Shown piece by piece: positions 4,976 to 32,511 of a stretch of 64,000 bases of DNA; position 1 is the first letter of the stretch; every line of letters begins with the position of its first letter. The translations under genes and the position numbers were made by a program. The notes under the pieces are model-generated. The model saw only the letters and a list, made by a program, of their open reading frames with translations, was not told the DNA's origin and ran no database searches. Source of the DNA: Acidimicrobiales bacterium. GTDB taxonomy: Bacteria; Actinomycetota; Acidimicrobiia; Acidimicrobiales; Aldehydirespiratoraceae. The stretch is from the NCBI GenBank assembly GCA_965207755.1, contig OZ242297.1, forward strand, positions 83,384 through 147,383. Direction: 5' to 3'.

Positions 4976-5362
4976 TGGCTTCGCGCGTTTCAGGTCGTGT
5001 GAGTGTGTCGAGCAGCGCCCAGTTGGGCTTGCCGGCGTAGAGCGGGACGCGGATCCGGTAGTTGGCGAAGTCAGTGCCTGCGCGGAAACGTGGGGAGCGG
5101 GGTGGTTGAGGGTCAGCTTGCCGACCCTCAGAGCCATCTACGACATCGACGACGCCGAAGTGGGCGCCGCCACCGTGAACCAACTCGCCTGAGATCTTCA
5201 AGACCCCGGCCTGCCCCCGAGATCAACCGGCTCGGACGCACCCTGTGGACCTGGCGGCACCAGATAGCCAACTGGCACACCGCCCGAGTCACCAACGCCG
5301 CCAACGAAGCCGCCAACAACCTGATGACACGCGTCAAACGCGTCGCGTTCGGGTACTGACTT
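4976..5362. mobile_element. Back-to-back ISL3-family fragments: minus-strand transposase tail plus end (4976-5072), solo IS end (5077-5114), plus-strand transposase C-terminal fragment (about 5190-5362)
   Basis: The minus strand reads TDFANYRIRVPLYAGKPNWALLDTLTRP. The plus strand reads PEINRLGRTLWTWRHQIANWHTARVTNAANEAANNLMTRVKRVAFG. Both are typical ISL3 transposase C-terminal motifs. The end motif cctgcgcggaaacgtggggagcggggtggttgagggtc recurs at four other sites. Confidence 0.7.
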
Positions 5363-7717: not shown

Positions 7718-8456
7718 GCCGCCGCTCAGCACGGGCCTCGCTGGCACCCGGCCCGGCGTCGTCCGCACCCGACGAGCAGGAGTAGGCGGCCCCGGCCGAT
7801 GCCCGTCGCCCAGGCCTTGGCCCGGAACCGGCCCTGCCGCCACATCAGGTGCTCGTCGAGCCCCAGCGCCGACACATCTGAGATCCTCTCGGCGCCGGCT
7901 GCGAGCAGCGCGCAGCCCCAGCGGCGCACCGGCGCGTTCACCGGATGCCGGCTGCAGCCCAACTCCCGCGCGATGTCGTCGTGGGAGCGGCCCCGCCCGG
8001 ACCGGCGCGTCGCCCAGCGCCCCGCCCGCGCCGTCAGCCCCTCGCGCTCGGGAGCGACCCGCGGATCCTGCTCGGTCACGGTCCACGCCGCGCCGTCCGG
8101 GTCCCCGCAGCGCCACCCGCGCCTGCTGCACCAGCCTCCAAGGCCGCCCGAACGCCGGCAGGTCCACCAGCTCCACCCCCCGATCGCCGTCAGAGCACAG
8201 CCGCCCGCCGCAGGCCCCACAGCCCGGCCGCGGCGCCCGACGGCGGACACGCACCCGCAGCGGCTCCCCGGCCCCGTCGTCGACGCCGAGCACCTCCACG
8301 TCGCCCAGCCCCAACATCAGCTCACACGCGCGCAGGGGTTGCCTCCCACAGGGATCCTCCAGATGCTCGGCTGCCTGGCGGCGCCGAATATGGGGGATCC
8401 CTCGCGTTCAGCCGCGGATGGTCAGCGCCCTACTCCGACCTCAAACGCGAAGCGCC
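7680..8456 (-). mobile_element. ISL3-family element (subtype 2), 5' part only: left end plus frameshifted transposase N-terminus
   Basis: The zf-ISL3-like CGACGGRLCSDGDRGVELVDLPAFGRPWRLV, then RCGDPDGAAWTVTEQDPR...GLDEHLMWRQGRFRAKAWATGI, are split over two frames. The terminal 106 bp (8351-8456) recur at 15702-15807. Confidence 0.7.
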
Positions 8457-9059: not shown

Positions 9060-9500
9060 GTGTCGCCCACCGAAGCTGTCCGCGCCGAGATCGACGAGTT
9101 GTCCGGCTCGGGTCGTGACATCGCAGAGATCCTCGAGGAGGTGATGCGCCTGTGGGCGCGGGCTGTGCTGCTGCAGGTCCTCGAGGAGGAGGTCACCTCC
9201 TGGCTGGGCCGGGACTGGGCCTCCCGCGCCGGCGGCGAACGGGCCGGGCAGCGCAACGGGTTCCGCGACGTGACGGTCAAGTCCACCGCGGGGCCGGTCT
9301 CCTTGAAGCGTCCGAAGCTGCGCAACACCGCCGCGGCGTCGCGTCGCAGCTTCGACGCCGGGTCAAAGTCATCGGCCGGCTCCCCGGCGAGGCCTCCTCC
9401 CCCACCCTGGTGTCAGCCGTGCTCGACCGGGCCTCACCAGGCTGGCGCGGCCTCACCTACACACCCGCCGTCGCCTGCCACCTCGCGGAGCGCCGCTGCC
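9060..9500 (+). pseudogene. IS256-family (Mutator-type) transposase remnant: N-terminal about 95 aa joined to a short C-terminal piece
   Basis: VLLQVLEEEVTSWLGRDWASRAGGERAGQRNGFRDVTVKSTAGPVSLKRPKLRN matches the IS256 N-terminus. VIGRLPGEASSPTLVSAVLDRASPGW (frame 9152..9610) matches the IS256 C-terminus. The whole catalytic core is missing. Confidence 0.65.
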
Positions 9501-9563
9501 GCCTACAGCAACCCCGCCACACCGACCACGCGCAGATCGCAACAGTCGCACGAGCGGTCCAAC

Positions 9564-12311
9564 ATGACCACCCGAGCCTGCGCCCCACACTGCTATTGCA
9601 CCACACCTGAGACGCGACCCACGGCCGGAGCAACGAACGAGAGCGCCGAAGAGTTGTGGGAGGAGTGCGCAGCGATCCTGCGACGCCTGTTCGTCCCCCC
9701 TGAGATCAGGCATGCCGAGCTGGAACGGCTCGCACAGTTGGAGGATCTCACCAGCGCTGACACGGCGGCCGTCCTGGGCCTCGTGTCCAGTTCCGGGCAC
9801 CTGCAGCATTTCTTGGCGAACATCGAGAGCCCAGCCTGGCTCGAAGCGCTGGGAGCCGCCGGCGTCTTGGATCTCTCAGACACGCATGGTCCGTGGCCGC
9901 CGCATGTCGCGGTGACCCGCCTCGCGGGAAGCCATCCCGCCAGGATCACAGCCTGGCTCCAGGACATGTACCCGTCGCGAGACGCTGGACCTGTGCCTGC
10001 CGCACAGGTCTGCCATGCCGCACTGAATGTTGGCGGGCCGGCCCTCGGCTTGGTCCTCGCCGCCGTGCGAGATCACCCAACCGACCACAGGATCATGAGG
10101 TCAGGCGTTAGGGCGGCAGAGCAGGCCGACGCGTCCGCTGCGTTGGTGGAGGACCTCGCCGACCTGATCCTGAATCCGAACAGTTGGCGCGCGGCCCGGC
10201 TCGTTGAGCCGCTGCTCAAACAGATGTCAGCCGGCGCGAACGAGGACAACTCTCAGCGCCGTGTCTCGATCCTTGTGCACAAGATCCGCTCACTCTCTGA
10301 CGACGATCAACTGCTCCGCAGGCTCAAGTGGCGGCGTTCTGGGTCCATCGCCGACACCCCTGCGAGGCATTCGCGTGATGATCGGTCCTGGGCACTGTTG
10401 TCGTGCTTGCTTCGCCTGCTGGAGAGTGCTTGGACCTGGACGCCCGCCAGCGACCTCCTTGACCACCTCGACGGCCTGCCTGACAGCCTCAGGCAACGAC
10501 TACGGGCATGGGTGCTCGCAAACGCGCCAGACGCCGACGCCGCACTCATCATCGATGAGATCGAGCAGGCGATCTCCACGCGGCTGCCGACCGGTGACGA
10601 CCCGGCTCTGCTGGACCGCGCCGCCGCGGTCGGCGACGCAGCCACATCTGCGACCAGATGGCGCGCCGCGTTGGGCACAGCGCCCGACGCGGAGCAAGCG
10701 GCTCGTGCGGCCGCCGCCGACGACATGAACCAGGATTGGCTTCGAGGACTGCGGTGGGTCCCGCTGCTGCCCGCCGGAACCGCGGACGCCTGGGCGGCTG
10801 CGAGCGACATTCTCGCCGACAGCTACGGCAGATCCAGCCGAGAAGGCCTCGCCCGCCGCCGCCCAGACACGATGGCCCAGTTCGCGGTGAGCCCCATCAG
10901 CATTGAGGAACTGCGATCGCTGGACCCGGACAGCGCCGCCGAGCGCGTTGCGGAGTGGCGGCCCGGCCCCGACGACTGGCTCGGCGGGGCGCATGAGATC
11001 GCAAGAGCCCTCGAGACCGTCGTCAAGGACAGCATCGAAGACTGTGTGTCCGCACCGATCCGCACAGTCGAGAAGCTGCGACACCCCACCTACATCAGCC
11101 GCTATCTGTCTGCCCTGACAGCGACCGTCTCAGCCCACGAACTGCCCGTCGGCGACATACTCGACGTGATTGGGCTTGTAAGAACACGCCCGTGGCCAGT
11201 GGAACCGCTCGCCGACGACCACCGCGACTACGACGCCGACTGGCGCGAGACGGAGCAGGCAGCCGTCGGGTTGATCAAGGCTCTGGCCGACTCAGACCGA
11301 GGCTTCGACGGCCGCGCCGACGAAGTCTGGGCGGTGCTGGCCTCTGAAGCCTCTGATCGTTCGGAGCCCTCCAACATAGTCTCGATCAGCACCGGGCCGG
11401 ATCATCTCGACAGCGCCATGGCCCGGCCATGCACCCGTGCCCTCGAGGCTGTGATCTCCCTCGTCGCGCACGAGTACCGCTCTTGTGGCACCGTGCGCCC
11501 AGAAGCGACCGCCCTCTTTGAGGACGCCCTGCGACTCGTCGACACCGACGGCGCCGAACACCGGGCCGTGCTGGCCTCCAGGATCGGATTCTTGTCGCAT
11601 GCCCTGCCCGAATGGACCGAGACGAACCGCGACCTATTGTTCGGAGACCAAGCCCCAGAGGGGCTAGGCCAGCTCACCGTCGAGCTCGCCCTCGAGTGGA
11701 GCCCCCCGAATCGGTGGCTCCTCGAGAACTTCCCCGAAGCCGTCCGCAACGCCGTCAGAGTCAGCGCCGAGCACGCCATGGACCACATGATGATCGCAAT
11801 GCTGTGGGGCTGCGCCGGCTACTCGGTCCCAGAGACCGTCGGGTTCCTGCGATCCTCTCCCGAGTTGGTGTCGAGGTCCGGGCAAGCACTGGCGAACGTC
11901 CTCGGCGGCGCCGACGTCGAAGCGTCCGTCGTCGATACTGTCACCGACTTCTGGAACGCGATCCTCGAGACAGAGACCGGCGACGCGGTCGAAGGATTCG
12001 GGTGGCTCGCAGAAGTCGCAGCAATCAGCGCCGAAACGTGGGAAGACCTCACGCTACGGACAATCAAGGCCGCCAACGGGCGAATCGACTGGAGCCACGG
12101 CATCGTCAAACGGCTCGCGGAATCGCCTCCCACCAGCACAGGCCTCGCACTCCTCAACGAGATGGTACGCGGCGACCTCGAAGAGTGGGACACCCTGAAC
12201 GTCGCCGAAGCGGCAGCGGACGTGCTCTCCAGGGCGGACAGCCTGAAAGACACCGACGACTACAAGCGGCTGCGCACAACACTGCTCGAACGGGCAATTA
12301 TCAGCGATTGA
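9564..12311 (+). CDS. large (about 915 aa) helical-repeat protein of unknown function; true N-terminus probably lost to the IS256 scar
   Basis: This is the C-terminal 915 codons of ORF 9060..12311, starting from the first in-frame ATG after the IS remnant. The composition is Leu/Ala/Asp/Glu-rich and coding-like throughout. No catalytic motif was recognised. Confidence 0.5.
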   Translation: MTTRACAPHCYCTTPETRPTAGATNESAEELWEECAAILRRLFVPPEIRHAELERLAQLEDLTSADTAAVLGLVSSSGHLQHFLANIESPAWLEALGAAGVLDLSDTHGPWPPHVAVTRLAGSHPARITAWLQDMYPSRDAGPVPAAQVCHAALNVGGPALGLVLAAVRDHPTDHRIMRSGVRAAEQADASAALVEDLADLILNPNSWRAARLVEPLLKQMSAGANEDNSQRRVSILVHKIRSLSDDDQLLRRLKWRRSGSIADTPARHSRDDRSWALLSCLLRLLESAWTWTPASDLLDHLDGLPDSLRQRLRAWVLANAPDADAALIIDEIEQAISTRLPTGDDPALLDRAAAVGDAATSATRWRAALGTAPDAEQAARAAAADDMNQDWLRGLRWVPLLPAGTADAWAAASDILADSYGRSSREGLARRRPDTMAQFAVSPISIEELRSLDPDSAAERVAEWRPGPDDWLGGAHEIARALETVVKDSIEDCVSAPIRTVEKLRHPTYISRYLSALTATVSAHELPVGDILDVIGLVRTRPWPVEPLADDHRDYDADWRETEQAAVGLIKALADSDRGFDGRADEVWAVLASEASDRSEPSNIVSISTGPDHLDSAMARPCTRALEAVISLVAHEYRSCGTVRPEATALFEDALRLVDTDGAEHRAVLASRIGFLSHALPEWTETNRDLLFGDQAPEGLGQLTVELALEWSPPNRWLLENFPEAVRNAVRVSAEHAMDHMMIAMLWGCAGYSVPETVGFLRSSPELVSRSGQALANVLGGADVEASVVDTVTDFWNAILETETGDAVEGFGWLAEVAAISAETWEDLTLRTIKAANGRIDWSHGIVKRLAESPPTSTGLALLNEMVRGDLEEWDTLNVAEAAADVLSRADSLKDTDDYKRLRTTLLERAIISD

Positions 12312-12356
12312 AACCGCCAAAACAGACCCGCCAGGCTCATCCCGGTCTCGATAATC

Positions 12357-12895
12357 GAGCCTTCGCGAATTCGTGGGGAGCGGGGTGGTTGAGGGTCCCC
12401 GTTGAGGGGTCGGGGCCCTGCTGGGATCGGTGATTGACACACCACTGATCCAGGAGGGCCTCGATGGCTTCTGATGTTGTGCGGGTGCGGCTGCGTGAGA
12501 CACGCGTGCTGAGAGTGCAGGTCGGCACGCCGAGCGAGCTGCGCGTGGAGATCGAGTCGACGGTGAGGCGCCCGCGGTGCCCGGCGTGCGGGTTCGGTTG
12601 CGCACGGGTGCATGACACCCGCCGACGCGACATTCGCGACGTTGGGGTGTCGGGGCGGCGCACCACGCTGGTTCGGCGCCGGCGACGGTTCCGCTGCGGG
12701 GGCTGCGAGCACCGCTTGGTCGAGGGCCACCCCGGGTTCGACGGCCGCCTGAGGCGGCGTCTGGCCCGGCGGCTGGTGGCCGACGCCGAGGTCAATGAGC
12801 CCGGTTACGTGAAGATGAGGACTCGCTCCAGCCGGTTCACCGTGCCGGTACAGATCGACATCTTCGACGCTCCCACAGCCGGGAGCGACGCCTGA
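12357..12895 (+). mobile_element. ISL3-family (subtype 1) left end plus N-terminal transposase fragment
   Basis: The end motif gagccttcgcgaattcgtggggagcggggtggttgagggtcccc (12357-12400) is followed by ORF 12464.. with the zf-ISL3 pattern RCPACGFGCARVHDTRRRDIRDVGVSGRRTTLVRRRRRFRCGGCEHRLVEGHPGF. The rest of the transposase is absent. Confidence 0.75.
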
Positions 12896-12896
12896 A

Positions 12897-14243
12897 GTGC
12901 CTTACGACGGTGAATATGCCACGGGCCATACGCTCGCTCGACTGGTTGCCAACCCGGCAGTGCGTGACTTCGACGGTGAGATCAAGAAATCCGCATCCAC
13001 CGGTGCTGGAGCCCTGCCCGCCACCATCGCACCACGCCGCGGGTCGACAAGAGTTAAGCGCCTCATCGCCATAGACGGCTCGACTGTGACGTCGAAGGTC
13101 GAGAACGGCCACCCAGGCGCGGAGGCTTCGCTGCTGAACATCGCCGCGGTCGTGATCGCGTTGGCGAGGTTGCGGGAACTAACCCAAATGGGCAAGAACG
13201 CCTCCGAGCCGATCCCGAGCCCCGCCGCAGTCAGAGAACTCGAGAAGTGCGACACCCTCAGCGCCGTGCTGCCCGGACGCAACGTCATAGGCAAGTCCAC
13301 CGGTGCGGACACCCCAAGAAGGTTCTTCCGTCAAGTCGTGCACCGCGAAATCAGCGGAGCGACCCTCTCGGGCGACCACGAGACCCTGCTGGAGACGCTG
13401 CGAGCCATCACCAACGACCGGTCGGCCCCTATCCAGTGCCCGGGCGAGTCCTGCGACCAGCATGTCACGCCGCAGTCTGAGCCGACGAACTGCGAAGCGT
13501 GCAGAGAGACCGTGTACCCCTCGGACTCACTGCGCTGCCACGAGAGATTCGAGGACTACGGCAGTAGCGAACAGGCCTTCACCATGGTGAGGATCGTCGT
13601 CGAGCACCTCTCGATGGTCAACCTGATCCGCTGGTTCGAGAGGCACGACCGGTTCGACGTGCTCGACGGGATCGGGTTCATCATGGACGGTCCGCTGGCC
13701 ATCTTCGGCATGGCAGCGTGGCTCAAGAAGCACATACAAGACGAGCTAGCCCGGCTCCACCGGCTCTCCCTTCACAAGGGCGGAGCGGGAGTGCTCCTGC
13801 TGGGAGTCGAGAAGCACGGGATGTTCATGGACCACCTCGAAGCGCTCGACTGGTCCGCGGCCCGCGGCGAGCGCGGCCGGCTGCAGCCGGGCACAGTGAT
13901 GGCCCCCGACGTTAGCTACATCCACCAGCACATCGCCTTGCGACCGCCGGACGCCAAACCCTACGGGCAGGCGACCTACTACGGCCGGCACCTGATGTAC
14001 AAGTCACAGAGCGGACAGCACGCCGCCTTGACGCTTCCGATTGTCAATGCCCAGGGAGCGGACCCGGCATGTGTGGAGGAGGGTGCTTACCCGCGCGCCG
14101 GCGACGCCCTGGACCTCATCGACGAGTTGGGCACCCACCTCTACAAGGACGGGTTCGCCCCGTTGGCGCGGGCCCATCTGCACGCCGCGGTGCCGCTGCA
14201 CCGCGGCACCGAGATACTGGCCTCCATCTTCTCGGACCGATGA
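12897..14243 (+). CDS. NurA-like nuclease with inserted zinc ribbon (candidate restriction component)
   Basis: GTG start preceded by GGGAGC. It carries RLIAIDGSTVTS and GFIMDGPLAIFGM (the NurA D-G-S / D-G-x-L acidic motifs) and a Cys cluster CPGESCDQH...CEACRETVYPSDSLRCH. The stop overlaps the methyltransferase start (ATGA). Confidence 0.55.
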   Translation: MPYDGEYATGHTLARLVANPAVRDFDGEIKKSASTGAGALPATIAPRRGSTRVKRLIAIDGSTVTSKVENGHPGAEASLLNIAAVVIALARLRELTQMGKNASEPIPSPAAVRELEKCDTLSAVLPGRNVIGKSTGADTPRRFFRQVVHREISGATLSGDHETLLETLRAITNDRSAPIQCPGESCDQHVTPQSEPTNCEACRETVYPSDSLRCHERFEDYGSSEQAFTMVRIVVEHLSMVNLIRWFERHDRFDVLDGIGFIMDGPLAIFGMAAWLKKHIQDELARLHRLSLHKGGAGVLLLGVEKHGMFMDHLEALDWSAARGERGRLQPGTVMAPDVSYIHQHIALRPPDAKPYGQATYYGRHLMYKSQSGQHAALTLPIVNAQGADPACVEEGAYPRAGDALDLIDELGTHLYKDGFAPLARAHLHAAVPLHRGTEILASIFSDR

Positions 14244-15436
14244 CAGCCGCCGTCACCAGACCGACGCCCGACTGCGGAGTGGGGTTCGCCACCCCCGAGG
14301 CCCGATGGGCTCGTCTGGGTCCCTACTACGCGATGTTTCCCATCAGTTTCGCCCAGGATGCCATAGACCGCTTCTCCCAGCCCGGAGACCTGGTCTTGGA
14401 CCCGTTCTGCGGCCGGGGCACCGCCCCATATGCCGCCATGGTCGCCGGCAGGGACGCCCTCGGCTGCGAGATCAACCCGGTCGCCTGGGTGTACGCCGCT
14501 ACCAAGACAGCCCCCGCGCCCGGCCCGGAGGCGGTCAAGGACCGCATCCGCGACATCGCCGAGTCCGCCTCGCCGGAGGACCGCGAGCCCAGATCGGAGT
14601 TCCAGGCCCTCGCGTTCTGCCGGACCGTGCTGGGGTTCCTGCACGCCGCGCGCCGCGGGCTGCGATGGCGGCACGACACCATCGACCGCACAGTCGCCGC
14701 GTTGATCCTCCACTACCTGCACAGCAAGATCCCCCAGGGGCTCTCGAACCAGATGCGCCACTGCCGGGCCATGTCGCCGGGCTACTGCGTGCGCTGGTGG
14801 AACGACAACGGCTACCAGACACCCCCCGAAGTCGACCCCGTCAGCTTCCTCAACGACCGAGTCGACTGGCGCTACCGCAGAGGAATCCCCGAGAGATCGC
14901 ACAGCAGCGGCGTGACCGTGACCCTCGGCGACTCTGCCGCCGACCTGGAGCCAGTGGCCAAGCCGGCCCGGCTGGTAGTGACATCGCCCCCGTACAGCGC
15001 GGTGACCGACTACAGAGCCGACAGTTGGCTGCGGCTGTGGGCGATCGGGGAAGGCCCCGCCTTGCCGAGATGGGACACCAAGCAGAAGTACGTCGACTTG
15101 GCCGCGTACGGCACGATGCTGCGGCGAGTGTTCTCGGCGACGGCACGCAGAGCACACCCCGACGCGGCGTGGCTGGTGCGCTGCGACGCCCGCGAGCGAA
15201 CATTCGACGTCGTCCTCCCCCTGCTGGGCGAGATCGCCGGCGGCCGAGACGTCGACGTGAGCCCTGCCCCGTTCCGGCGGCCCACCCAGACGTCGCTGTA
15301 CGGCGACCGGGCCGCGAAACCCGGCGAGATGGACCTGCTCGTGCGCCCCGGAGCCACGAGAGCACGCCGACCTGGCCAAAGCCGAGCCCCGAACGGCTCC
15401 GCCGCCGCCCGCTGCACACCACAGGCCGAATCGTGA
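14240..15436 (+). CDS. N6A/N4C DNA methyltransferase, motif I before motif IV (alpha-like order)
   Basis: The ATG at 14240 lies inside ORF 14069..15436. LVLDPFCGRGTAPYAA (AdoMet motif I) is followed about 200 aa later by LVVTSPPYSAVTDY (catalytic SPPY). Confidence 0.8.
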   Translation: MTAAVTRPTPDCGVGFATPEARWARLGPYYAMFPISFAQDAIDRFSQPGDLVLDPFCGRGTAPYAAMVAGRDALGCEINPVAWVYAATKTAPAPGPEAVKDRIRDIAESASPEDREPRSEFQALAFCRTVLGFLHAARRGLRWRHDTIDRTVAALILHYLHSKIPQGLSNQMRHCRAMSPGYCVRWWNDNGYQTPPEVDPVSFLNDRVDWRYRRGIPERSHSSGVTVTLGDSAADLEPVAKPARLVVTSPPYSAVTDYRADSWLRLWAIGEGPALPRWDTKQKYVDLAAYGTMLRRVFSATARRAHPDAAWLVRCDARERTFDVVLPLLGEIAGGRDVDVSPAPFRRPTQTSLYGDRAAKPGEMDLLVRPGATRARRPGQSRAPNGSAAARCTPQAES

Positions 15437-15630
15437 CCACCGGCCGCCGCCGAAGCCGCAAACTCGACGACGACTGGCCCAAGACCCCCCACCTCCTCGC
15501 CGCACGCTCCAAGCGATACCTTCGACGGCTCCACGTAGGCGACACCGCTTTCGCCGTCTGGGGAACCGTGGATAGAATGCGCCTCCCGTCTTGGATGACA
15601 TCGAACGGATACTCCGAGAAGTTGCCGGTG

Positions 15631-15807
15631 GCCCAGGCCTCGGTGCGGATCGGCCCCGCCGCCACATCAGGTGCTCGTCGCGCACAGGGTTGTCTTCCAA
15701 AGGGATCCTCCAGATGCCCGGCTGCCTGGCGGAGCCGATTCTGGGGGATCCCTCGCGTTCAGCCGCGGACGGTCAGCGCCCTACTCCGACCTCAAACGCG
15801 AAGCGCC
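15631..15807 (-). mobile_element. ISL3 subtype-2 left-end remnant (internal-deletion copy of 7808-8456)
   Basis: It shares gcccaggcc...ccgccacatcaggtgctcgtcg and the terminal 106 bp (15702-15807) with the copy at 7680-8456, in the same orientation. It retains only DEHLMWRRG of the transposase. Confidence 0.75.
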
Positions 15808-16024
15808 ACGAAAGTCCAGGTCAGAGTACATGTCCTGACTTTCGGCTCCAAAGGGTCTGACGCGATATTCTAATGGATATTCTGATATGCTGTCGGGAAC
15901 CGGTCGGGGAACGGATAGCGGGAAGTGCTACGCTCGTCATCACAATACAAGACATGACCCGGCCCCGGTGGCAGCCGAGGCGGGGCGACGTCACCAATTC
16001 CAGCAGGGCCTCGACCCCTGCTCC

Positions 16025-16063
16025 GGGACCCTCAACCACCCCCTCCCCACGTTTTCCTGCAGG
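16025..16063. repeat. solo ISL3 subtype-1 end (right-end orientation), copy R3
   Basis: gggaccctcaaccaccccctccccacgttttcctgcagg is the inverse of the end at 12357-12400. About 30 further bp inward also match the left end. Confidence 0.75.
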
Positions 16064-16249
16064 TTCGACCAATATAGTGTTTGCTGACGCTAAGCTAAGT
16101 CTCAAGGCTTGTCCTGCCAACACGTTGAGAGCACGATCCGAGTGGCCACCGAGAACACGCTTTGGCCCGTACCATCCAGTATCAACAGAATATGTGTCCG
16201 AGCGTGAAGTCACGAGTGACACAGCTCCTGTAAACAATCGGATGCTCAT
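16064..16249 (-). pseudogene. 5' stub of a fifth operon gene, cut off by the ISL3 end
   Basis: ATG 16249 overlaps the ImmA stop (ATGA). MSIRLFTGAVSLVTSRSDTYSVDTGWYGPKRVLGGHSDRALNVLAGQALRLSLASANTILV then reads into IS-end sequence (EPAGKRGEGVVEGP). Confidence 0.35.
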
Positions 16250-18562: not shown

Positions 18563-18681
18563 GGTGTGCCTCCTCCTTGAGCGGTGCTTCATCTGCACAT
18601 ACATCTATCAGTAGGCAATAGTTATTGTATCATGCATACGGACCGTGTGCAACCCATGCCGGTGCTTGCCGCCCCTGAGCA

Positions 18682-18722
18682 GGGACCCTCAACCACCCCA
18701 CTCCCCACGTTTCCGCGCAGGC
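18682..18722. repeat. solo ISL3 subtype-1 end, copy R4 (same orientation as R3 and R5)
   Basis: gggaccctcaaccaccccactccccacgtttccgcgcaggc. Confidence 0.75.
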
Positions 18723-18791
18723 TCATCATATATAAGCGGCGCGCCGCGCAGTTGATCGGGATGGTCCGGGAACCCGCTGCACGCAGGACGC

Positions 18792-27644: not shown

Positions 27645-27963
27645 GACATGAAACACCCGCCCGGGGACGGCATCGAAGCGAGCCGTCCAGCGGGCGGGGA
27701 GTAGATGACCCTGAGCGTATTGCGCCGACGCTGGCACGTCAACGCCTGCTCCGGGGACTTCGTTGGGCTAGTGGTGTGTCGTGGGTGCGGGCCCGTCCGA
27801 GAACAGGCCGGCTGCGCCCAGGGGATCGACGGCAAGCTCTAGCGGTGGTTGCAAGTGAGGGCAGTGTAGGCGCTGTGGGGTGAGTGCCAGTCGTGGAGTT
27901 TGCGGGGCATCATATTGAGGTTGTCCTCGATGACGGCGAGGGTGGCCGGGCCAACTACGTCTG

Positions 27964-29158
27964 GTGCATGAACTCATCGAACTCCTTCGACGTGACGGAG
28001 CATTTGACCCTACGAGCATGCACAGCGCCGCCGAGGTCGCACGCGAGCAGCTTGCCGAATCGCTCGAGCCGTACGGGACAGCGCTGCTCGAGGACGGCAG
28101 AATCGAACGAGACCTCGGGGTGTTCGTCAACGCCTCGACACTCCCGGACGAGGGGGTCCGGCCCGAACCGGATAGACGGTGTTCCTTGCGACAGCCTTTC
28201 CGATGAGCTACGTTATGAACATGTGTTCGGATCAGTCAAGGCCTACGAGGCGGCGTGCAAGAGGCAGGCCGTGAGACTTGGCGAGGTGTTCGTATTCGAC
28301 AACGGCCGGCTGACGACGCCCCAGTGGATCATCAACTTCCCGACCAAGGGTCATTGGCGCGCCAGGTCCCGCATCCGCGACGTGGCCGAGGGCCTCGACG
28401 ATCTGCGCGACGTGATCGAGGAGCTGGGGATCTCTTCCATCGCGCTGCCGCCGCTGGGCTGCGGCCACGGCGGGCTGGACTGGGACGAGGTCAGGTCACT
28501 GGTCATGGAGCGCCTGGACGGCCTCGATGTCGTCGTTCACCTGTACGCCCCGGAGGGCGCCCCCGACGCTGCCGAAATGGTGGTGTCGGCCCCGCGCCCG
28601 AGGCTGACTGCGAGCACGGCGGCGCTGGTGTCGGTGATCGACCGGTACTCCCAGGTGGCGCTGTTCGTGTCGCTGATCGAGATCCACAAGCTCATGTATT
28701 TCCTGCAGGAGGCGGGCGAGGACCTCAAGTTGCGCTATCAGGCGAAGTTCTACGGCCCCTACGCCGACAACCTCCGCCATGTGCTCAAGTCGCTCGAGGG
28801 CCATCAACTCGGAGGCTTCGGCGACGGTTCGAAGAAAGTACGCGAAGCCGAGCCGATCGCCGTGCTTCCAGGCGGAGTCGAGGAGGCATCCGACGCTCTC
28901 GCAGAGAATCACCAAATAATCGAGCGCATCGAGCGAGTCCTTGAGCTGGTCGAGGGCTACGAGTCGGCCTACGGACTCGAACTGCTCGCCAGCGTTCACT
29001 GGATGGCCGCCCGCAACGGGAACAGCGATGACTTGAGCGGTGTGACCAAGCGAGTCCAGAGCTGGAGCCGGCGCAAGCGGCGTATGTTCACCGCGCAACA
29101 CATCGAGTCTGCCTGGCAGCGCCTCCATGACCATGGCTGGCTAGCAGCTGCGGCCTAG
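27964..29158 (+). pseudogene. darG: DarG-like macrodomain antitoxin; N-terminal part of the macrodomain frameshifted or degenerate; no DarT gene
   Basis: KAYEAACKRQAVRLGEVFVFDNGRLTTPQWIINFPTKGHWRARSRIRDVAEGLDDLRDVIEELGISSIALPPLGCGHGGLDWDEV closely resembles DarG macrodomains, and a C-terminal domain of about 250 aa follows. The first beta-strands (YGTALLEDG...VFVNAS) sit in a different frame (27964..28206) and lack the usual NxxN/GxMGxG residues. Confidence 0.7.
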
Positions 29159-29429: not shown

Positions 29430-29435
29430 GGCTCA

Positions 29436-30043
29436 CCGCCCCATATGCCGCCATGGTCGCCGGCAGGGACGCCCTCGGCTGCGAGATCAACCCGGTCGCC
29501 TGGGTGTACGCCGCTACCAAGACAGCCCCAGCGCCTGACCCGGAGGCGGTCAAGGACCGCATCCGCGCAATCGCCGAGTCCGCCTCGCCGGAGGACCGCG
29601 AGCCCAGATCGGAGTTCCAGGCCCTGGCGTTCTGTCGGACCGTGCTGGGGTTCCTGCACGCCGCTCGCCGCGGGCTGCGATGGCGGCACGACACCATCGA
29701 CGGCACAGTCGCCGCGTTGATCCTCCACTACCTGCACAGCAAGATCCCCCAGGGGCTGTCGAACCAGATGCGCCACTGCCGGGCCATGTCGCCGGGCTAC
29801 TGCGTGCGCTGGTGGAACGACAACGGCTACCAGACACCCCCCGAAGTCGACCCCGTCACTTTTCTGAACACCAGAGTCGACTGGCGCTACGCAAGGGAAT
29901 CCCCGAGAGTTCCCACAGCAGCGGCGTGACCGTCGCCCTCGGCGACTCGGCCACCGACTTGGAGCCAGCGGCCAAGCCGGCCCGGCTGGTAGTGACATCG
30001 CCCCCGTACAGCGCGGTGACCGACTACAGAGCCGACAGTTGGC
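29436..30043 (+). pseudogene. internal fragment (about 610 bp) of a second copy of the 14240..15436 methyltransferase, frameshifted
   Basis: It is near-identical at nucleotide level to 14419-15034 (scattered substitutions by eye). It lacks motif I upstream, retains TSPPY, has a frameshift near 29890, and homology ends abruptly at gacagttggc. Confidence 0.85.
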
Positions 30044-30722: not shown

Positions 30723-31110
30723 CCGCCATCGGGGACTACAGCGACGTCCTCAACGACAACATGATCGCGGCGTGGCCCCGCGTCGGCGCCGCCCTCGAAG
30801 GCCTCGACTGCGCTCTGATGGGCGGCACCGCGGTGGCCATGGTGCTGCGGCACCGCCACAGCCACGACCTCGACTTCATGACCCTGCAACCCTTCGACTC
30901 GCGAGCGGTCGCAGCCAAGCTGCTGTCAGCGGCCGCCCGGGCCGCCTACAAGGACGACGACCGGCCCCACATCGCTACAGTCGCCTTCGACGGCGTGCCC
31001 GTCACCGTCATGAGAGACCTCCGAGGCTTCATCGAAGGCCACGCCGCCCAGCTCGCCGCGCCCAGCGTCGTCGACGGCATCGCGGTGGGGTCGGTCCCGG
31101 ACCCCACGCT
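30719..31110 (+). pseudogene. AbiEii/AbiGii-type nucleotidyltransferase toxin, truncated after about 130 aa
   Basis: CALMGGTAVAMVLRHRHSHDLDFM matches the AbiEii signature (GGTAL...R.S.DlDf). Beyond about 31110 the ORF is out-of-frame shadow of the next gene. Confidence 0.55.
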
Positions 31111-31146
31111 TGCATCTCGCCGGTGGCGGTCCGCAGGTACTCTTCG

Positions 31147-32511
31147 ATGGCCCTACGCCTCGCCGCTGGAGTTCTCGTCGTGGCCGAGCCGAACTTCCTC
31201 AACCGGACCCTCTGGATCGGCGACAACCTGCCCGTGCTGCGCGGCATCAACTCGGAGTGCGTCGATCTCGTCTGCCTCGACCCGCCCTTCAACTCCACGC
31301 GCCTCTACAACGCTCCGCACGGTTCCGACGCCGCGGGGGCGCGGTTCGACGACACCTGGACGATGGACGGCATGGAGGCCGAGTGGACGGAACTGCACGG
31401 CGCCGCCGACCCTGCCCTGTACCACACAGTCATCGGCGCGAGGCTGTCGGCGGGAGACGCCATGCATGCGTACATGGTGTTCATGGCATTGCGCCTCGTC
31501 GAGGTCTGGCGGGTGCTGAGCCCCACTGGTGGTCTGTACCTGCACTGCGATCCCCACGCCTCGCACTATCTCAAGCAGCTATGCGACTGCGTCTTCGGCC
31601 CGGACCGGTTCCGCAACGAGATCGTGTGGAAGCGCACCAGCACCAAGTCGCTCGGAACCCGACGCTACGCCCGCGACGGCGACCGGATCCTCTACTACAC
31701 CAAGTCGTCTACCGACTTCGTCTGGAATCAGCAGTACCGGCCCCATGATCCCGACCATGTCCGCAAGAACTACCGGCATGACGACAACGATGGGCTGGGA
31801 CCGTACGCTACCGAGCAGTTGACTGGCGGCAAGGCGGGCGGCTCGCTGGCGTATGAGCCGTTCAAGGGGGTGGAACCGCCGAAGGGGCGTGCCTGGTCGC
31901 CGCCTCGCCGCGGAAAGTTCCCGCCCGTCAAAGCAGCGAGACTGCCCGACGACTACGAGCATCTTGACGTCCTCGCCAAGTGTGAGGCGCTCGACGACGC
32001 TGACCTGCTGTATTGGACCGCAGCGGGAATCCCCCGATACAAGAGCCATCTGTCTGCCAAGCGGGGCAACCCTGCGAGCGACATCATCACGCATATCCCT
32101 CCGGTGGCGGGCACGGAGCGCACCGGCTGGCCGACCCAGAAGCCGCTCGCCCTCTACGAGCACTTCATCGCGGCGTCGTCCGATCCGGGCGACATGGTTC
32201 TCGACCCGTTCTGCGGTTGTGCCACCACGATGATCGCCGCCGAGCGGCTGGGACGCCAGTGGGCCGGCATCGACATCGACGAGGTCGCCATCGGGATCAC
32301 CCGGAAGCGGCTGCAGGAAGAGTCCGACGCCGCCGTCCACAACGTCGACCTGGACGGCTCCCGGGAGGGCTCGCCGTCGCTGCACCTGCCGCCGCGCCCA
32401 CCGATCCGCACCGACACGGCCGGCTCGCGCGCGGCCTCCTCCCCGCCCAGACCGGTCGGAGCCAGCCGGCCGCTGACCAGCGTTCCGAGCTCAGATGATG
32501 GCCGAGGGTGA
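31147..32511 (+). CDS. beta-class N6A/N4C DNA methyltransferase (Type III Mod-like layout), no cognate nuclease nearby
   Basis: VDLVCLDPPFNS (motif IV) comes first. After a variable region of about 300 aa come TQKPLALYEHFI and MVLDPFCGCATTMIAAERLGRQWAGIDID (motif I). The ATG at 31147 lies inside ORF 30772..32511. Confidence 0.8.
   Translation: MALRLAAGVLVVAEPNFLNRTLWIGDNLPVLRGINSECVDLVCLDPPFNSTRLYNAPHGSDAAGARFDDTWTMDGMEAEWTELHGAADPALYHTVIGARLSAGDAMHAYMVFMALRLVEVWRVLSPTGGLYLHCDPHASHYLKQLCDCVFGPDRFRNEIVWKRTSTKSLGTRRYARDGDRILYYTKSSTDFVWNQQYRPHDPDHVRKNYRHDDNDGLGPYATEQLTGGKAGGSLAYEPFKGVEPPKGRAWSPPRRGKFPPVKAARLPDDYEHLDVLAKCEALDDADLLYWTAAGIPRYKSHLSAKRGNPASDIITHIPPVAGTERTGWPTQKPLALYEHFIAASSDPGDMVLDPFCGCATTMIAAERLGRQWAGIDIDEVAIGITRKRLQEESDAAVHNVDLDGSREGSPSLHLPPRPPIRTDTAGSRAASSPPRPVGASRPLTSVPSSDDGRG

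Follow-up and report, generated by a model that had tools for sequence, protein, structure and literature searches.

A probable remnant of a HerA/TdpA-like ATPase, NurA-fold nuclease and DNA methyltransferase cassette in an Acidimicrobiales genome

Results

Layout of the locus

The stretch of DNA analysed here, which we call the window, comprises 64,000 nucleotides of an Acidimicrobiales genome (GenBank assembly GCA_965207755.1, contig OZ242297.1, positions 83,384 to 147,383) and includes a gene for a NurA-like nuclease of 448 amino acids (aa) that runs directly into a gene for a DNA methyltransferase (the methylase). The host genome is a single contig of 3.84 Mb, 96% complete, its closest relatives are sponge-associated Acidimicrobiia, and the GC content of the window is high (~0.68). 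A first-pass annotation, made from the sequence of the window, had seen in these two genes an atypical restriction-modification (RM) pair in which a NurA nuclease does without HerA, the ATPase with which NurA is usually found. The coupling of the two genes that it described is present, the nuclease TGA (14241-14243) overlapping the methylase ATG (14240-14242) as ATGA at 14240-14243 ('ccgATGAca'). What it had missed is the tail of a HerA-like gene, whose 3' end occupies the 105 nucleotides directly upstream of the nuclease gene (12791..12895). The features of the locus are collected in Table 1.

Table 1. Features at and around the nuclease-methylase pair, in window coordinates
Feature	Coordinates	Strand	Evidence
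ISL3-type left terminal repeat	12357..12433	+	94% identity to left end of ISL3 copy at genome 2741745; inverted match to 15991..16068
ISL3 transposase gene, 5' fragment (first 109 codons)	12464..12792	+	PF14690 Zn_ribbon_ISL3, 8.1e-08
HerA/TdpA-like ATPase gene, 3' remnant (last 34 codons and stop)	12791..12895	+	tblastn with the HerA of a relative
Chimeric open reading frame, 143 aa, ISL3 fragment and HerA remnant in frame	12464..12895	+	
Predicted NurA-fold (TdpB-like) nuclease gene, 448 aa, GTG start, intact	12897..14243	+	AF2 model, Foldseek
DNA methyltransferase gene, 398 aa, intact	14240..15436	+	PF01555, PADLOC MTase_II
ISL3-type terminal repeat, inverted, solo end	15991..16068	-	82% over 79 nt to 12355..12433
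Methylase pseudogene fragment (residues about 61-263)	29434..30043	+	95.4% nucleotide identity to 14419..15029

The lost ATPase gene and the ISL3 junction

When the three proteins of a relative that carries the nuclease, the methylase and a 692-aa HerA were searched by tblastn against the whole genome, the nuclease and the methylase were recovered at full length, and from the HerA only residues 659-691 were found (94% identity), in the stretch 12791..12889 that leads up to the nuclease start. The rest of the cognate ATPase gene (1.97 kb) was not found anywhere in the genome, either by tblastn or by a HerA search at E<=1e-20; what came up elsewhere was an unrelated NurA-HerA pair, described below. 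Nucleotide homology to the corresponding gene cassettes of eight relatives starts exactly at 12791 and ends at about 15363. On the 5' side of 12792 lie an ISL3 left end and the first 109 transposase codons, which share 94% identity with a more complete ISL3 copy (genome position 2741745); the homology to that copy stops at 12792, and the piece retained encodes a Zn-ribbon domain only, with no DDE domain. Transposase codon 109 is thereby joined to ATPase codon ~659 across a 2-nt GT microhomology, in an open reading frame (ORF) that stays in frame and, as in the native arrangement, ends one base short of the nuclease start, and the ISL3 promoter may now drive the nuclease and methylase through this chimeric ORF.

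The closest relative of the pair (96% aa identical) has an intact 692-aa DUF87 gene upstream. The HerA-less NurA of the first-pass annotation is therefore not borne out, with an ATPase gene upstream in the intact relatives and a 34-codon remnant of it in the window; the HerA-less state at this locus is an apparent lineage-specific, insertion sequence (IS)-associated deletion and not an architecture. The deletion would be recent, because neither the nuclease nor the methylase gene is broken or carries an excess of amino-acid changes. Codon changes in the nuclease gene on the branch leading to the window number 13 nonsynonymous against 49 synonymous, similar to relatives, and a test for relaxed selection on the window lineage of this gene detected none.

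The pair is indeed bracketed by ISL3 ends, as had been noted (12355..12433 and 15991..16068). A target-site duplication was looked for around the two ends and none was found, the flanks being unrelated, and the ends therefore do not speak for transposition of the pair as one unit. The window copy does not combine the DDE_Tnp_ISL3 transposase, two inverted repeats and target-site duplication of a functional ISL3 element. The ISL3 end has further copies at 18672..18724 and 5076..5114. A short repeat at 15623-15807, in the interval from the methylase gene to the right-hand ISL3 end, recurs at window 7800-8456 and at no fewer than three other sites in the genome, and it is probably the end of another mobile element.

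The three-gene cassette in relatives

The nuclease and methylase belong to a triad whose synteny is strict and which is horizontally mobile. In a scan of one genome per species 172 relatives were found, from which 79 loci were kept; all three genes lie on one strand in about 72 of them, and most of the others are cut by contig ends. The gene order is DUF87/HerA, nuclease, methylase in relatives at 46% to 96% protein identity, with gene ends that overlap or nearly abut. The first gene encodes a HerA/TdpA-like ATPase of 675-750 aa and the third, in the window and in all 79 loci, an N6_N4 DNA methyltransferase. Thus the nuclease and methylase do co-occur in other genomes (~72/79 loci), as the first-pass annotation had asked of its proposal, and they do so together with the ATPase. 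Compared with PDB sequences, the ATPase of the relatives matches TdpA best (6.1e-16) and then HerA of defence systems and archaea; compared with PADLOC, it matches HerA models at up to 6.4e-20 and mad8 at 7.6e-12 to 6.9e-15.

Carriers are found in more than ten phyla, among them Actinomycetota, Chloroflexota, Latescibacterota, Binatia, Gemmatimonadota and Acidobacteriota as well as Proteobacteria, Bacteroidota, Cloacimonadota, Ignavibacteria, Caldisericales and others; the cultured Flectobacillus rivi LFS242W (L082) and Sediminibacterium roseum SYL130 (L085) are carriers too. There is no fourth conserved cassette gene, the commonest flanking family being present in 7 of the 79 loci, and the neighbours in relatives include Type I RM, TIR, AbiEii and TmtA-like genes, i.e. 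defence islands. Distribution is patchy even within the genus of the host, where the nuclease is present in 2 of 25 genomes and one more has a herA fragment only. Within this genus, genome G156 has the triad intact. Another decayed copy of the cassette lies in genome G171 (C15:8170-8790), where residues 73-252 of the cognate herA remain as a 5' fragment (89-91% identity) and the nuclease gene is missing.

Mobile elements carry related arrangements. Vibrio phage 10N.286.54.E5_PE002 (locus L113, 1-5751), a temperate phage element, encodes an integrase, HerA (in two ORFs) and a NurA-like homolog (27% identity, E 1e-38) together with a methylase of a different family, Dam/D12 (Dam-class PF02086), on the opposite strand. 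On the megaplasmid pDF308 of Deferribacter desulfuricans (L114, 1-6221) the order is methylase, DUF87/HerA, NurA. As a side observation, a Caldilineaceae locus (L001, 2076-5483) has a 1135-aa GHKL-type protein (PADLOC TmtA, 5.2e-102) directly upstream of the triad; the 1083-aa ORF of the window at 9060-12311 was considered as its counterpart and rejected, the two being unrelated.

Decay of the ATPase gene across relatives

Broken copies of herA are found in several other carriers. In a related Acidimicrobiales metagenome-assembled genome (MAG; L015, 3939-5250) an ISL3-like element, 75% identical to window 12348-12792, lies inside herA. Two distantly related carriers have independent nonsense codons in the same conserved stretch of herA, a Binatia MAG (L026, about 5343-5345) with TGG changed to TGA at a conserved Trp and an Entotheonella MAG (L060, about 5333-5335) with a TAA stop ten codons beyond that site, and in both of them the nuclease and methylase are intact. 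Loci L038 and L086 have herA deletions, and an IS200/IS605 insertion with tnpA-tnpB interrupts the DUF87 gene of pDF308. Splits also affect the nuclease gene, at three loci, and the methylase gene, at one. Of the three genes herA is broken most often; this bias is not significant given the gene lengths (estimate: chi-square about 2.9, 2 d.f.), and some of the splits may be sequencing errors. The direction of decay fits RM logic, in which the restriction arm is lost first.

The 448-aa nuclease

Searches of Pfam, NCBIfam, PHROGs and PADLOC (E up to 0.1-1) and of PDB sequences (E up to 10) gave zero matches to the 448-aa protein, and PADLOC 2.0 has no model for the nuclease. Against the Pfam NurA profile PF09376, whose gathering cut-off is 21 bits, the window protein has no match at E<=0.1, and the sole match of this profile in the whole genome is another NurA (C1:20809-21459, described below). 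Homologs number 147 in a word-indexed search, every one labelled 'hypothetical', and a full HMMER scan (E<=1e-3) gives 747 family representatives at the 50% identity level. Distant members of the family score 13.9-17.5 bits on PF09376, below the cut-off, and a homolog on a Tolypothrix plasmid (25% identity to the window nuclease, 98% coverage, E 6e-22), which PGAP labels NurA, scores 23.7 bits, above it. Membership of the 448-aa protein in the Pfam NurA family is, as far as sequence scores indicate, transitive only.

An AlphaFold (AF2) model based on 30 homologs (pLDDT 84.3, pTM 0.84) was compared with the PDB by Foldseek, and the matches ranked 1-14 are all TdpB, NurA or TM1739 (E 1.9e-7 to 5.7e-2). 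The top match is TdpB, chain G of the TdpAB complex in 8wfd (E 1.9e-7, TM 0.60 on target, identity ~16%), followed by the NurA proteins of Deinococcus, Thermococcus, Pyrococcus and Sulfolobus and by TM1739, with the first unrelated match at E 0.23. The earlier identification as a NurA nuclease is upheld by the fold and fails on the direct Pfam match. At the level of sequence, a profile of 58 diverse members reaches TdpB (8wet_G) at E 0.013, a profile of the close family gives only chance matches among PDB sequences, and TdpB and the 448-aa protein have motifs in common in the same order (N-terminal MPYxGE, DGS, DGxLA and AH...IP). Profile alignment by hhalign to bona fide NurA (one sequence from the host genome and an alignment of 12 from the phylum) gives weak matches in motif regions only, at E 0.0014 to 0.049; the pairing of MDGPL with RDGLL, GVEKHG with GVAKTS and RAHLHA with RAHDHA of a bona fide NurA comes at E 0.049.

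The acidic motifs and Cys-rich ribbon of the first-pass annotation are present and conserved. In NurA the catalytic acidic and His residues follow the order D (strand 1), E (helix 1), D (strand 4) and H (C-terminal helix). The Asp residues of AIDGS (D60) and MDGPL (D264) are invariant in 30 close and 58 distant relatives; in the wide family there is no variation at D60, D210, D264 or K306, conservation of E236 reaches at least 90%, and the consensus closes with 'AHxxAAIPL'. Four cysteines (C181, C186, C199 and C202), each at least 90% conserved across the wide family, belong in the AF2 model to a small beta ribbon that is inserted after strand 3 and ahead of helix 1. As modelled, the 448-aa protein is a diverged nuclease of the NurA fold that stands closest to TdpB and carries a zinc ribbon as an insert; by score it is not a Pfam NurA.

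The methylase and its duplicate

The methylase scores 49 bits on PF01555 (N6_N4_Mtase; cut-off 26.7) and matches PADLOC MTase_II at 5.4e-20. Motif I (DPFCGRGT, residue 54) precedes motif IV (SPPY, residue 249) by 195 aa, close to the 200 or so first estimated, and both motifs are conserved among cassette methylases. In an alignment with 19 of these the window methylase keeps all conserved blocks; its C-terminus is a short non-homologous extension beyond 15363, where the homology to relatives stops. The partial duplicate some 15 kb away is also real: the segment 14419..15029 is repeated over 611 nt (Table 1). The duplicate is without motif I and frameshifted, with tblastn matches in two frames, and by these features of its sequence it is a pseudogene fragment. 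By-eye reading of translations suggests that the ORF just beyond it (30772-32511) has the motifs of a second, beta-class N6_N4-type methylase (DPPF ... DPFCGCATT) and that the ORF at 27884-29158 resembles a macro-domain protein.

A second HerA-NurA pair in the same genome

About 64 kb upstream of the window (C1:18557-21865; L090 4558-7865, minus strand) the genome has a separate canonical NurA (398 aa, PF09376 at 6.9e-09) and a DUF87/HerA (704 aa) in an overlapping operon, which adjoins a DruA-like gene (PF14236, 1.4e-84) and an AbiEii-family gene. The 704-aa ATPase is ~31% identical to the cognate ATPase of the cassette, over partial regions only.

Discussion

We think it likely that the pair is a remnant, the 3' two-thirds (12791-15363), of a cassette of HerA/TdpA-like ATPase, NurA/TdpB-like nuclease and methylase, its restriction arm likely dead and its methylase an orphan. 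In the intact cassette the methylase would mark host DNA (as m4C or m6A, SPPY favouring m4C), and a hexamer of the ATPase with a dimer of the nuclease would load on DNA and degrade it by ATP-driven translocation unless it is marked. In the lineage of the window an illegitimate join has deleted the ATPase gene except for its last 34 codons. NurA nucleases need a HerA partner for processive DNA degradation, and because of this dependence the nuclease, having lost its motor, most likely no longer restricts here; the methylase probably persists as an orphan.

Several observations weigh against this interpretation. The junction is known from the assembly. The window protein does not match Pfam NurA, and hhalign relates it to bona fide NurA only weakly, at E 0.0014 to 0.049 and within motif regions. 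That the nuclease gene bears no sign of decay fits a recent deletion and fits retained function equally well. In some distant relatives, e.g. on the Tolypothrix plasmid, no methylase gene adjoins HerA and NurA. Lastly, the RM logic is drawn from synteny, context and the analogy with Tdp, and protection by the methylase from the ATPase and nuclease would follow from that same reasoning.

The clean state of the two remaining genes leaves room for a HerA-independent two-gene RM system, in which unmethylated DNA is restricted by the NurA-fold nuclease on its own: the two genes are undamaged and coupled in translation, there is no nonsynonymous excess on the lineage, and the in-frame chimera preserves translational coupling to the upstream ORF. 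We regard such a system as very unlikely, given the HerA remnant directly upstream, the HerA in all intact relatives (including the one at 96% identity) and the dependence of NurA on HerA; moreover, the sole loci that have no intact herA despite enough upstream sequence (L038 and L086) also look decayed. The recurring association of nuclease and methylase, and their coupling, do make an RM-like logic reasonable, and it is the two-gene, HerA-less form of the earlier proposal that fails. Restriction might still work if the genome's other HerA-like ATPase (C1:18.5-20.7 kb), the 704-aa DUF87 protein outside the window, served the remnant nuclease in trans, but this is highly improbable, as that ATPase has its low and partial identity to the cognate one, has its own canonical NurA partner in an overlapping operon, and would be unlikely to be shared if, as we suppose, ring-ATPase/nuclease complexes are specific for their partners. 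Finally, an assembly artefact at a repeated IS could produce a HerA-less junction, and the join does involve the multi-copy ISL3 and is known from the assembly. We hold this to be extremely improbable: the breakpoint falls within the transposase gene and herA, away from any repeat boundary, a clean 2-nt microhomology marks it and a reading frame stays open across it, and the 1.97 kb lost from herA does not turn up anywhere in a genome that is one contig and 96% complete.

On the wider question of what the intact triad does, we lean, with moderate confidence, towards an unnamed, widespread ATP-dependent RM class, in which a ring translocase and an RNase-H-fold nuclease shred DNA that is without base methylation, and in which repeated loss of the motor with the methylase kept (the window, L015, L026, L060, L038, L086 and pDF308) reflects autoimmune cost. 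The triad could instead be a DNA-repair or end-resection module, as HerA-NurA acts in end resection in archaea and Deinococcus (PMC13748450), or a selfish addiction module of mobile elements, for which mobility and decay are typical too. A non-immune role of this kind seems unlikely to us in view of the patchy distribution across phyla, the location in defence islands and next to a phage integrase, the association with methylases of two unrelated families, and the nearest solved relatives, which are the restriction proteins TdpA and TdpB; an addiction role is, besides, compatible with defence.

If the RM reading of the family is true, the cassette is a distinct restriction arm for methylation-based immunity, built from a HerA-type ring motor and a NurA-type nuclease, and the use of the TdpAB machine extends beyond phosphorothioate marks. 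The window copy corrects a tempting misreading of such remnants as HerA-free NurA restriction systems. It is also a natural knock-out of the motor gene that leaves nuclease and methylase whole. Several such cases arose independently, and they form the pattern expected if restriction comes at a cost and the methylase can be given up safely only after the other parts.

Comparison with known systems

Canonical HerA-NurA (Sulfolobus, Pyrococcus, Thermococcus and Deinococcus; 2ygk, 3tai, 9x1n and 7f6d) has the RNase-H-like NurA fold of the 448-aa protein, and the relatives of the cassette likewise pair this nuclease with a HerA-type ATPase. Unlike the canonical pairs, whose function in archaea and Deinococcus is end resection (PMC13748450 and PDB titles), the cassette has no Mre11-Rad50 linkage, has an obligatory methylase partner, moves horizontally and sits in defence islands. 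A 2026 review of NurA (PMC13748450) has bacterial NurA-HerA acting in immunity, and does not mention methylases or Tdp. SIR2-HerA and DUF4297-HerA (PMC11472057, PMC11514289, PMC11291478) also couple a HerA-family ATPase to an effector, but they have no modification gene, whereas the effector of the cassette is a NurA-fold nuclease and its methylase would serve self-marking. MADS (PMC13662399) resembles the cassette in being methylation-based and in its ATPase-nuclease modules, and its PADLOC model mad8 matches the cognate ATPase; it differs in having eight genes in place of three, and none of its models picks up the 448-aa nuclease at E<=0.1.

With Type I and Type III RM systems the cassette would share a methylase that protects self and a motor driven by nucleoside triphosphates and coupled to a nuclease. 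Its motor is, however, a HerA/FtsK-type ring and not an SF2 helicase, its nuclease is an RNase-H-like NurA and not a PD-(D/E)xK enzyme, and it has no specificity subunit. As for a Type II pair, in which a stand-alone restriction endonuclease lies beside a methylase, PADLOC gives no restriction endonuclease match and the NurA-fold nuclease of intact relatives has an ATPase. A literature search for HerA, NurA and methyltransferase together gave no description of the triad, and neither that literature nor PADLOC 2.0 has a name for it.

The intact cassette would be the base-methylation counterpart of TdpABC, a phosphorothioate-based RM system. TdpABC (PDB 8wet, 8wfd and 8y1k) likewise brings together a ring ATPase (TdpA), a NurA-fold protein (TdpB) and one DNA-modifying enzyme, TdpB being the best fold match of the 448-aa protein and TdpA the best PDB sequence match of the cognate ATPase. 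Its hosts are thermophiles, in contrast to the mesophilic, mostly sponge-associated bacteria that host the cassette. Work by An et al. in 2025 (Nat Chem Biol) reportedly found that the phosphorothioate mark stops TdpAB on self DNA. The mark itself is made by a single enzyme, TdpC (PMC12914056), and in place of TdpC the modification gene of the cassette encodes an N6_N4 base methyltransferase. The window nuclease is ~70 aa longer than TdpB, with the four-Cys ribbon as an insert and an identity of ~16%, and where TdpABC has the hexameric ATPase TdpA the window copy keeps only a 34-codon remnant, a difference that belongs to this lineage, the intact cassettes of its relatives having the ATPase in full.

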